Shown here: positions 23,859-23,889 of the stretch, one piece after another
How the letters are laid out: every line of letters begins with the position of its first letter
Position numbering within the stretch: the stretch's first letter is position 1
Origin: a virus
Length of the DNA: 46,657 nt
UHGV virus genome: UHGV-0180138
Strand: one strand, 5' to 3'
The notes under the pieces: model-generated
The model's database searches: none
What the model was told of the DNA's origin: nothing
The model's input: only the letters and a program-made list of their open reading frames with translations
Made by a program: the position numbers and the translations under genes

Positions 23859-23889
23859 ATTTTTCGCGTAGCAACGCGTAAACATGTAT
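23859..23889 (+). promoter_or_regulatory. conserved 31-bp element ATTTTTCGCGTAGCAACGCGTAAACATGTAT upstream of portal gene
   Basis: 27 of 31 positions identical to element at 36726-36757; internal inverted repeat CGCGT-agca-ACGCG. Confidence 0.45.

Follow-up and report, generated by a model that had tools for sequence, protein, structure and literature searches.

Short signals in the leaders of messages are known from several systems. The 5′ stability and processing elements include the ompA 5′ hairpin, the T7 gene 10 leader, and the RNase E sites upstream of T4 gene 32 and in papBA, and the phage translational operators include those of Mu Com at mom, of T4 RegA, and the hairpin bound by the MS2 coat protein. 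A signal may also be shared by a helper and its satellite, as are the late promoters of P2 and P4 that are read by Ogr/Delta. A further short leader signal is the RfaH ops element, which we take to be GGCGGTAGnnTG with a C3:G8 pair. Operon I of SaPIs is activated by the helper's LtrC (PMC3753634); helper cos sites occur in PICIs, and a PICI-type satellite is described by an integrase, an AlpA-type regulator, packaging genes such as terS, a ~10-kb island, and a specific attachment site (PMC6092414). Finally, the phages of the mEp021 group are Nus-dependent and non-lambdoid, and their N-like protein, Gp17, works at the nut sites nutL, nutR1, and nutR2; a Q-like protein is mentioned as well (PMC11893012).

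Here, we analyzed a 46,657-nt stretch of viral DNA, UHGV virus genome UHGV-0180138 (referred to as the window in the following). Judged by sequence, it represents a temperate siphophage that infects E. coli and belongs to the mEp021 (“mEpimmI”) group; in the surroundings of the two sites described below, it matches MagusPhagus at 93–95% and mEp021, mEp010, mEp013, mEp044, mEp515, and mEp554 at 83–89%. At these two sites—the leaders of the portal gene and of tail gene M (Table 1)—the window carries copies of a conserved element of which the genomic description of the group makes no mention (PMC11893012).

Two copies of one element in the late region

The preliminary description of this DNA had quoted two 31-nt sequences, at 23859–23889 and 36727–36757, and both read letter for letter as given. 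They differ at 4 of 31 positions, in agreement with the 27/31 identity reported, and the distances to the start codons were likewise correct (15 nt from the end of the 31-mer to the portal ATG at 23905, and 25 nt to the ATG of M at 36783). The CGCGT/ACGCG inverted repeat ascribed to both is present in copy 1 only; copy 2 has CGCGT/GCGCG, that is, four G-C pairs plus T-G. The shared similarity is in fact longer than 31 nt, spanning 41 nt (23852–23892 versus 36720–36760) with 32/41 positions identical by hand count in a covariance-model alignment, and the element is also readable as a direct repeat, GCGTA-N5-GCGTA, with units 10 bp apart (CGCGTAG...CGCGTAAA). Both copies point in the same direction and are 12.9 kb apart.

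No further copy is apparent in the window. A 23-mer consensus allowing up to three mismatches hit these two sites only and had 0 hits in 100 dinucleotide shuffles. The covariance model R1, built from 27 phage variants of the element, returned no credible third copy when run with filters off (next match 12.8 bits, E = 1.8), and nor did a fuzzy 22-mer search with up to six substitutions, whose only additional hits were copy 1 read in reverse and, at 39426, a sequence agreeing at 16/22 positions. What had been proposed as a looser relative of the element at 803–822 turned out to be unrelated: R1 does not match it, and its minus strand is the boxB hairpin that follows boxA (TGCTCTTTAAAAA) in the order TGCTCTTTAAAAA-CCAGGUGU-CGCU-GCGA-AGCG. 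We identify this stretch as nutL, with boxA at 826–838 (minus strand); an identical boxA, followed by another boxB, is found at 9977–9989 (nutR2), and both agree with the positions reported for these nut sites (PMC11893012).

Table 1 Coordinates of the two leader sites and of neighboring genes in the window.
Feature	Position	Strand	Remarks
TerS	21336-21836		
Extra HNH_3/AP2 gene	21849-22352		between TerS and TerL
TerL	22336-23826		
C-rich, G-poor spacer after TerL stop	23827-23851	+	variable among relatives
Copy 1, 41-nt leader module	23852-23892	+	R1 62.7 bits, E = 4e-12; between TerL stop (23826) and portal start (23905)
Copy 1, extended imperfect hairpin (predicted)	23859-23885	+	folding, consensus structure, pair counts
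Shine-Dalgarno AGGAG (23892-23896) and portal ATG (23905-23907)	23892-23907	+	
Portal gene	23905-25284		PF06381
Tape-measure gene	33227-35572		
Promoter-like block: GTGAAG, GCCATTTTGTAAACT, invariant TATAAT (36703-36708)	36680-36708	+	conservation 92-100%
CRP-like site cattgtgatgtagatctcattt	36711-36732	+	right flank overlaps 5′ edge of copy 2
Copy 2, 41-nt leader module	36720-36760	+	R1 67.4 bits, E = 3e-13; upstream of tail gene M
Copy 2, extended hairpin (predicted)	36727-36753	+	11 pairs, bulged U
Shine-Dalgarno GGGGG (36774-36778) and M start codon (36783-36785)	36774-36785	+	
Tail gene M	36783-37136		
Gene L	start 38349		
Gene J	40274-44809		

Copy 1 sits in a 78-nt spacer inside the late operon. 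Directly ahead of the holin gene, a terminator-like hairpin at 18455–18473 suggests that the late transcript starts before 18455, and a scan of 23700–24000 for sigma-70 promoters found none on either strand. Downstream of copy 1, a strong terminator is located at 28985–29011. Two side observations concern the spacer itself: by eye, 23827–23851 looks akin to the leaders of the intZ islands introduced below (AACC...CACAAT...TTCT), and in a subset of relatives, a 70-bp palindromic insertion lies right after the TerL stop.

Copy 2 belongs to a tail region that is split three times by blocks of minus-strand genes (32055–33099, 35602–36614, and ~37430–38218, according to the called reading frames), each flanked by hairpin-plus-T terminators—two detected by scan, and the third (~37333–37352) read by eye. 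The genes of the block preceding M specify a ParE-like toxin and a 51-aa protein, a pair that more likely controls its own expression through the palindrome TGTATACA within its promoter. Each block is followed by a promoter-like module, CCATTTTG-TAWAMT, and then by a CRP-like site. At M, the TATAAT of this module (36703–36708) is 100% conserved; the block as a whole stays below the threshold of the consensus promoter scan, which reported no sigma-70 promoter on either strand of 36550–36850. If the M transcript were to begin ~7 nt past TATAAT, copy 2 would cover roughly its nucleotides +12 to +42. The adjoining candidate site for CRP, cattgtgatgtagatctcattt (36711–36732), agrees with what we take to be the CRP consensus at 18 of 22 positions, and related CRP-like sites are located upstream of H and L and, on the minus strand, at 16620–16641. 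In the leaders of H and L, the CRP-like site runs directly into the ribosome-binding site; in the M leader, the element and ~25 more nucleotides sit between the two. One relative (L076) carries an HNH-AP2 gene inserted between the element and M, with the element kept upstream and now leading the inserted gene.

Conservation and predicted fold

An exact-pattern scan of IMG/VR yielded 82 loci, all of which correspond to one of the same two sites in relatives. Since variation inside the pattern is invisible to such a scan, relatives were also gathered by protein homology. For the portal site, 51 loci were retrieved in this way and condensed into 44 unique sequences, in which identity is ~100% from 23852 to ~23945, yet only 45–98% in the preceding spacer (23829–23851), and falls to 45–80% at synonymous sites of TerL and of later portal codons. 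For the M site, the 31 closest loci (M 83–98% identical) gave 26 unique sequences with three conserved islands: the promoter-like block (36680–36708), the element (36723–36751), and a third at 36759–36772. Alignment to related phages, a check named in the preliminary description, thus found both copies kept and nearly invariant in every homology-retrieved relative, between flanking spacers that vary. In mEp021 (MH706966), the two copies are located at 28894–28924 and 42090–42120.

More distant phages differ in this respect. M homologues at 67–72% identity in other phages directly follow the tape-measure gene and the element is absent there. It is likewise missing at portals of ~60% identity, whose spacers differ; these portals come from lambdoid prophages of Enterobacter and Klebsiella and from a single metagenome contig. 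Among 5,426 complete E. coli genomes, we found the element only in the 35 that contain this prophage type, plus five partial island matches; a 35-nt query scores two places in 31 of these 35 genomes and one place in the other four. When one genome per species was scanned (185,579 species), five matches emerged, which is about the number calculated for chance, and the four inspected lie beside or inside called ORFs of unrelated genomes, two being located in a reading frame that they share. In a metagenome scan for which the promoter motif upstream served as anchor, chance matches drowned out the rest; it contributed five more sequences, with no new variant. Near-invariance in relatives together with only chance matches across species genomes argues, at the level of sequence comparison, that the element is specific to the mEp021 clade and under constraint. 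We rejected a repetitive extragenic or MITE-like element, there being two copies per phage genome, always in the same two places. Both copies have an AGAAG loop in contig 2541047727_000007 and an AGCAA loop in contig 3300045988_076772, and the exchange of loop types between the two sites in some genomes indicates short-patch gene conversion.

On the sense strand, the core—UUUUU-CGCG-U-AGNA-N-CGCG-U-AAA—is predicted to form an imperfect hairpin of up to 11 pairs. In copy 1, the core stem pairs 23865–23869 with 23874–23878 (CGCGU/ACGCG) around an AGCA loop (23870–23873), and one unpaired U per strand separates it from a lower UUU/AAA stem with a C mismatch; the fold reaches −6.1 kcal/mol (z = −1.6). 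Copy 2, with a core of 36733–36737 paired to 36742–36746 and an AGAA loop, folds at −9.3 kcal/mol (z = −2.6), a stability equaled in 1 of 200 shuffles. For every M-site variant tested, the sense strand gives a more stable fold than the antisense strand; for portal-site variants, the two strands are about equal; and the mean over all 36 variants is −7.6 (sense) versus −5.6 kcal/mol (antisense). Taken over a wider region, the fold around the portal copy is unremarkable (z = 0.0 and −1.2). Structure prediction across the element and start codon was again suggested in the preliminary description. Two other arrangements were rejected: a larger structure of the portal leader with the unusually conserved first 13 codons, which shows no covariation and whose anti-Shine-Dalgarno pairing relatives L170, L171, and L174 have lost, and a pairing of the left arm with the start codon, which is not conserved among M-site relatives.

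The variants tolerate much change in the loop (AGCA-A, AGAA-G, AGAA-U, AGAA-A, GGAA-G, AGAG-G, AGCG-A, AGCU-A, and, in two contigs, a 1-nt deletion). In the stem, UGCG (twice) and a UGCG right arm keep a sense-strand G-U pair, and CACG (L353), CGCA (L362), a T-to-C change (L171), and T-to-A or T-to-G changes in the U-run break pairing. Overall, 94.9% of the stem cells are paired in the 27 phage variants; six stem pairs vary on one side, nearly always remaining paired as sense-strand G-U or U-A, and covariation in the form of double-sided changes was not seen in this set (0 cases). With the island copies included, three pairs change on both sides, a result that 22 of 500 shuffles match and that slid controls approach or equal (one to three pairs). 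By hand count, ~7–8 of ~10 stem-column transitions preserve sense pairing where half would be expected; this apparent bias toward sense-strand pairing is suggestive and no more. Across all copies, those from islands included, merely four positions of the 41-nt frame are invariant (G17, U18, G20, and A29), and as three of them—G17, U18, and G20—fall within GUAG, this motif is the most constrained part.

The same leader in intZ islands

A short-query search revealed a 31/32 match to the element (R1 score, 45.6 bits) in E. coli FDAARGOS_1284, where it is contained in a 9.3-kb insert between eutA and eutB. This insert encodes the integrase IntZ, a YafO-type toxin pair, a 63-aa HTH_17/AlpA-like protein, and an Sf6-type TerS-like protein (PF20901, E = 1.4e-13) of the same family as the phage TerS. 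The gene for the latter protein is part of an operon, and it is in the leader of this operon's first gene that the element lies, again pointing in the sense direction. Beyond the element, comparison of island and window by blastn gave nothing significant (other matches of 16–23 nt, E ≥ 0.1). With intZ, an AlpA-like and a TerS-like gene, and a 9.3-kb insert at eutA/eutB, the island shows hallmarks by which PICI-type satellites are defined (PMC6092414), although a primase-replicase (pri-rep) gene was not recognized by Pfam in the island genes scanned.

Related islands in 20 more genomes harbor diverged versions of the same leader; E. coli strains with intZ islands also include GF3-3 and ES5. The arms read CGCG...CGCA in islands L362, L363, and L367 and UAUG...CAUC in L366, two G-C pairs being replaced by U-A and A-U in the latter; the stem is lost in L361, L364, and L365. 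In some islands, the element comes directly after the HTH_17/AlpA-like gene, and HNH genes are found directly upstream of the leader in L364 and L366. We also observed a weak −10-like CAAAAT or CACAAT 2–7 nt before the U-run of the island leaders. Every copy, across three otherwise unrelated contexts, resides in an untranslated leader in sense orientation, and the distance from the hairpin end to the AUG is 27 nt at the portal gene, 37 nt at M, and ~43–46 nt in the islands (hand count).

Strong purifying conservation at both phage sites and reuse in a third context argue for a functional cis-acting signal upstream of genes. The original proposal of a late-gene regulatory or protein-binding site is partly supported: it holds as regards such a signal, which may or may not bind a protein or be specific to the late phase. 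Nor is the element bound to structural genes as a class, since besides portal and M it heads the intZ-island operon and, in L076, precedes an HNH gene.

Comparison with described signals and candidate modes of action

Searching the whole window against Rfam 15 gave no gathering-level match, the best local E-values (0.88–9.5) being far below threshold. An intrinsic terminator scan found none at either copy on either strand; read on the plus strand, the hairpin comes after its T-run, and on the minus strand it is trailed by an A-run. Sigma-70 hexamers with a spacing of 16–18 nt were not found within or spanning the element, the TATAAT at 36703–36708 being upstream of copy 2 and outside of it. 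Given that the element is always part of a sense leader, at variable distance to the gene and in three unrelated settings, we argue against a packaging site, a promoter or a terminator. A pac or cos site was also rejected in view of the two co-oriented copies 12.9 kb apart and the island copy at the head of an operon. The binding motifs we assume for CpxR (GTAAA-N5-GTAAA), the marbox, PhoP, IHF, and ops leave the invariant CGCG blocks unexplained. Both ops and the element place GTAG(C) in a leader, within a short hairpin that the non-template strand could form; the element differs in that its phage copies agree with the presumed ops consensus at only 5 of 12 positions and the L361 island copy at 7 of 12, and in that the C3:G8 pair is impossible, positions 3 and 4 of the element being G and C rather than C and G. 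Neither a NusG/RfaH-like nor an AlpA-like protein was found among the window ORFs scanned (AlpA-like by tblastn). NagC/Mlc operators carry TT and AA at −6,−5 and +5,+6 around the dyad center (PMC4288165), positions at which the element has G, C and G, C, and this candidate was consequently dismissed.

The explanation we prefer, and hold tentatively, is a portable leader signal that acts as sense-strand RNA in processing, stability or translation, with the invariant GUAG as the part that a factor probably reads. A lower A-U helix (UUUUU with AAA-G/C-AU) would bear a CGCG/CGCG helix capped by UAG-N-A-N, and this hairpin would act in cis and post-transcriptionally on whatever gene comes next: portal, M and the small gene after it, or the first gene of the island operon. 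Its likeliest mode would be that of a processing or stability signal and/or of a binding site setting translation. The single-stranded A-U-U-U-U immediately 5′ of the hairpin is reminiscent of sites cut by RNase E, and cleavage in this A-U-rich run would leave a downstream message that starts with a protective hairpin. Because GUAG, on the 5′ side of the loop, is kept even in copies whose stem has decayed, we propose that a trans-acting factor—of phage, island or host origin—may read the element sequence-specifically. Orientation and substitution pattern make us lean toward a sense-strand RNA hairpin over a DNA site. What the sequences show is that the element exists and is conserved, how many copies there are, where and in which direction they lie, and how they are predicted to fold; its action as RNA, its mode of action, and the existence of a factor are what we infer. 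Weighing against an RNA signal are the absence of real covariation, the variants that break pairs, the island copies L361 and L365, in which no hairpin is left, the similar stability of both strands at the portal site, and the ordinary fold of the wider region there; the near-invariant primary sequence, moreover, would suit a DNA-binding site just as well.

Among described systems, the stability and processing hairpins of the ompA and T7 gene 10 type likewise place a leader hairpin after an A/U-rich single strand at variable distance to the ribosome-binding site, as a portable cassette at boundaries between genes that need different expression levels. The element departs from them in that copy 2 would lie ~12 nt from the predicted 5′ end rather than at the end itself, and in a GUAG invariance that exceeds the needs of a purely structural stabilizer. 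With the operators of Com, RegA, and the MS2 coat protein, it has in common a small hairpin near a gene start, in which a few loop or junction bases are invariant and the remainder is tolerant, and it differs from these in its distance to the start; this distance varies from 27 to ~46 nt, so that direct occlusion of the ribosome-binding site appears unlikely. As with signals shared between helper and satellite, the same short non-coding sequence occurs in a phage morphogenesis region and at the head of an island operon, although here the shared sequence is no recognizable promoter, cos or pac site. That a single trans-acting factor, encoded by an mEp021-type phage or by an intZ (CPZ-55-type) island, would read the same hairpin at portal, M, and the island TerS-like operon, as part of an undescribed helper–satellite system, strikes us as unlikely.

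The main rival, which we regard as somewhat unlikely, is a DNA operator at which a dimeric or tandem protein would bind TTTTCGCG-N6-CGCGTAAA or GCGTA-N5-GCGTA. The protein could come from the phage, the island (for instance, the AlpA-like HTH protein) or the host, and would control transcription running through or starting at these sites, serving as an activator or roadblock, or the site could load an elongation factor. Two conserved blocks 10 bp apart with a variable center are the typical pattern of a protein–DNA site, and several substitutions break the RNA stem in copies that are nevertheless retained; copy 2, moreover, abuts the CRP-like site and the conserved TATAAT, the element directly follows the HTH_17/AlpA-like gene in some islands, and use by both phage and island fits shared transcriptional control. 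Such an operator is harder to reconcile with the lack of a recognizable promoter at copy 1, with a dyad that is asymmetric in all genomes (TTTT-CGCG versus CGCG-TAAA), and with the 1-nt change in spacing tolerated in two contigs. Most transitions, furthermore, keep sense-strand G-U pairs, tblastn detected no AlpA-like homologue in the window, and the TT/AA rule of NagC/Mlc (positions ±5 and 6) does not hold. Transcription enters also into the idea—the least probable of those considered—that the element is a promoter component for the downstream gene or a leftward transcript, served by sigma-70 and an activator. The CAAAAT/CACAAT of the islands, 2–7 nt before the U-run, would put the hairpin at the very 5′ end of the transcript, and copy 2 is downstream of an invariant TATAAT; against this stand a consensus scan that was empty at both sites on both strands, the absence of a workably spaced hexamer pair inside the element, and the portal site, where a start downstream of the element would fall past the ribosome-binding site.

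Two further explanations were considered. In one, which we deem quite improbable, the element is a recombination footprint—the recognition or co-conversion region of an HNH homing endonuclease, or a small mobile palindrome—homogenized by homing or conversion. HNH genes do adjoin the element (between it and M in L076; upstream of the leader in L364 and L366), the window has its extra HNH_3/AP2 gene between TerS and TerL, loop variants are swapped between sites, and L358 has a truncated copy of the element. A footprint of this kind would, however, hardly be fixed at both sites in every relative, with or without an HNH gene nearby, and always in a leader and in sense; its flanks vary freely within 10–20 nt, unlike co-conversion tracts, and target-site duplications and presence/absence polymorphism are absent. 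The other, very improbable in our view, is a nut-like RNA site, in which a boxB-type target would let Gp17 or another antiterminator reload on RNA polymerase to pass downstream terminators. The group is Nus-dependent and has three nut sites (PMC11893012), and the element shares with lambda-type nut a short G/C stem and a purine-rich loop in a sense transcript, as a repeated cis element of a Nus-dependent phage upstream of terminators. The boxB hairpins of the window, too, are 4–5-bp G/C stems with U before a purine-rich loop (CGCU-GCGA-AGCG and GCGC-UGAAAU-GCGU), and strong terminators follow both copies (28985–29011 and ~37333–37352). Yet boxA (TGCTCTTTAAAAA) is missing near either copy, where UUUUUCUAUUUUU or AGAUCUCAUUUUU is found upstream instead, and the freely variable loops (AGCA/AGAA, with AGAG, AGCG, AGCU, GGAA, and a 1-nt deletion) are not GNRA-like, the phage's own boxB loops being GCGA and UGAAAU (which contains GAAA). 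R1 matches none of the three nut sites of the window, the element belongs to the late region and does not follow an early promoter, and the H and L units face the same terminator problem without it.

A conserved leader hairpin in a phage late message, as we prefer to read the element, is of a familiar kind, and should it be a stability hairpin only, it would belong to ordinary phage gene-expression biology. Less ordinary is that satellite-like islands use the same leader. The mEp021 group is a recently described, separate, and common family of gut coliphages for whose late gene control only a Q-like gene is known so far, and the duplicated leader signal provides a handle on expression in a late region fragmented by opposite-strand blocks with their own promoters and terminators. 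The presence of this signal in intZ islands with satellite hallmarks points to a testable regulatory link between these coliphages and a family of cryptic islands, which ~20 of the 5,426 complete E. coli genomes that we searched carry at the eut locus. If a helper–satellite system were indeed behind it, the island could time its packaging genes with the late phase of the phage or, alternatively, throttle the synthesis of the phage portal and tail.

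Antitermination signals and the probable late-promoter region

Two nut sites, nutL and nutR2, share the boxA TGCTCTTTAAAAA followed by a boxB hairpin, and a weaker boxA-like sequence located 5′ of the N-like gene is probably nutR1 (see table). The preliminary description had proposed a looser relative of the leader stem-loop element (the one preceding the portal gene and tail gene M) near 803-822; this turned out to be nutL, taken from the wrong strand. Positions 18379-18478 likely constitute the late-promoter region. Here, an A/T-rich stretch precedes a strong terminator-like hairpin (18455-18473, with a T-run after it), a layout similar to that of lambda pR′-tR′, and the holin gene (18498) lies just 3′ of the hairpin. 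The Q-like gene (11388-12140; PF03589) is encoded 6 kb upstream of this region, with ~25 small ORFs in between.

Table. Coordinates of the features discussed (window positions, unless stated otherwise)
Feature	Position	Strand	Details
nutL	800-838	minus	boxA TGCTCTTTAAAAA, then boxB hairpin CGCU-GCGA-AGCG
Probable nutR1	~1838-1866	plus	weaker boxA-like GCACTTTAAAAA, upstream of N-like gene (2142-2432)
nutR2	9977-10010	plus	boxA TGCTCTTTAAAAA, then boxB hairpin GCGC-UGAAAU-GCGU
Promoter-like module CCATTTTG-TAWAMT	33175-33209, 36686-36732, 38296-38332	plus	
Promoter-like module CCATTTTG-TAWAMT	16655-16620	minus	
Promoter-like module, further positions	1757-1764, 9886-9893, 9949-9956, 33151-33158, 38234-38241		
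Opposite-strand blocks in tail cluster	32055-33099, 35602-36614, 37430-38218	minus (all)	
Terminators flanking these blocks	32032-32048, 35577-35597, ~37333-37352		
Free-standing HNH endonuclease genes	21849-22352, 8661-9188		
intZ island L360	1339075-1348378 (NZ_CP070170)		E. coli FDAARGOS_1284; related loci L361-L367

Start of the portal gene

In a subset of relatives (L175, L183, and L201), a 70-bp insertion (GTTATTGATTATTATCAACTTCGAAAAATTTTCGAAGATGAAC...) directly follows the TerL stop codon, corresponding to window position 23827. It holds a perfect 9-bp palindrome (CTTCGAAAA/TTTTCGAAG) and lies 5′ of the element, which is intact in all three. Across 44 unique relatives, synonymous variation is nearly nil from portal codon 1 to ~13 (23905-23945), unlike in the rest of the gene. 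A predicted stem between the Shine-Dalgarno sequence and portal codons 11-13 is lost in the most divergent relatives and so does not explain this constraint. As to annotation, most E. coli prophage copies of the portal protein (PF06381, DUF1073) are labeled ‘anti-CBASS protein Acb1 family protein’ by NCBI's PGAP in RefSeq, which looks like a misleading family name for a portal gene in this position.

HNH genes and intZ islands

Free-standing HNH (HNH_3/AP2) endonuclease genes occupy intergenic positions that are vacant in close relatives. One such gene sits between TerS and TerL in the window and is missing from mEp021 and MagusPhagus; in another phage relative (L076), an HNH gene separates the element from M, and some intZ islands (L364, L366) carry one directly 5′ of the element-bearing leader. 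These islands, each ~9 kb long, form a family inserted between eutA and eutB (the CPZ-55 position) in ~21 of 5,426 complete genomes. They encode an AlpA-like HTH protein and an Sf6-type small-terminase-like gene, and look like phage satellites. DEC9B-type islands likewise contain an element copy, in truncated form (L358, 2495-2522), and an IncFIB plasmid (L365) has one homologous leader and operon.

Tail-cluster blocks and CRP-like sites

The tail gene cluster is broken three times by opposite-strand blocks with flanking terminators. One block encodes a VasI-like protein (PF11319) alongside a small lipoprotein-like protein, another encodes a 51-aa protein and a ParE-like toxin (PF24732), and the remaining one ends in a KilAC/ANT-like protein (PF03374). 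The promoter-like module occurs 12 times in the window (3.3 expected). Downstream of four of these copies lies a near-consensus CRP-like site whose right half, TAGATCACATTT, is perfect or almost so. These sites are centered at ~+4 relative to the rightward unit and at ~−61 to −71 relative to the leftward promoters predicted for the opposite-strand blocks, an arrangement suggesting that cAMP-CRP controls the embedded accessory genes together with tail genes H, M, and L.
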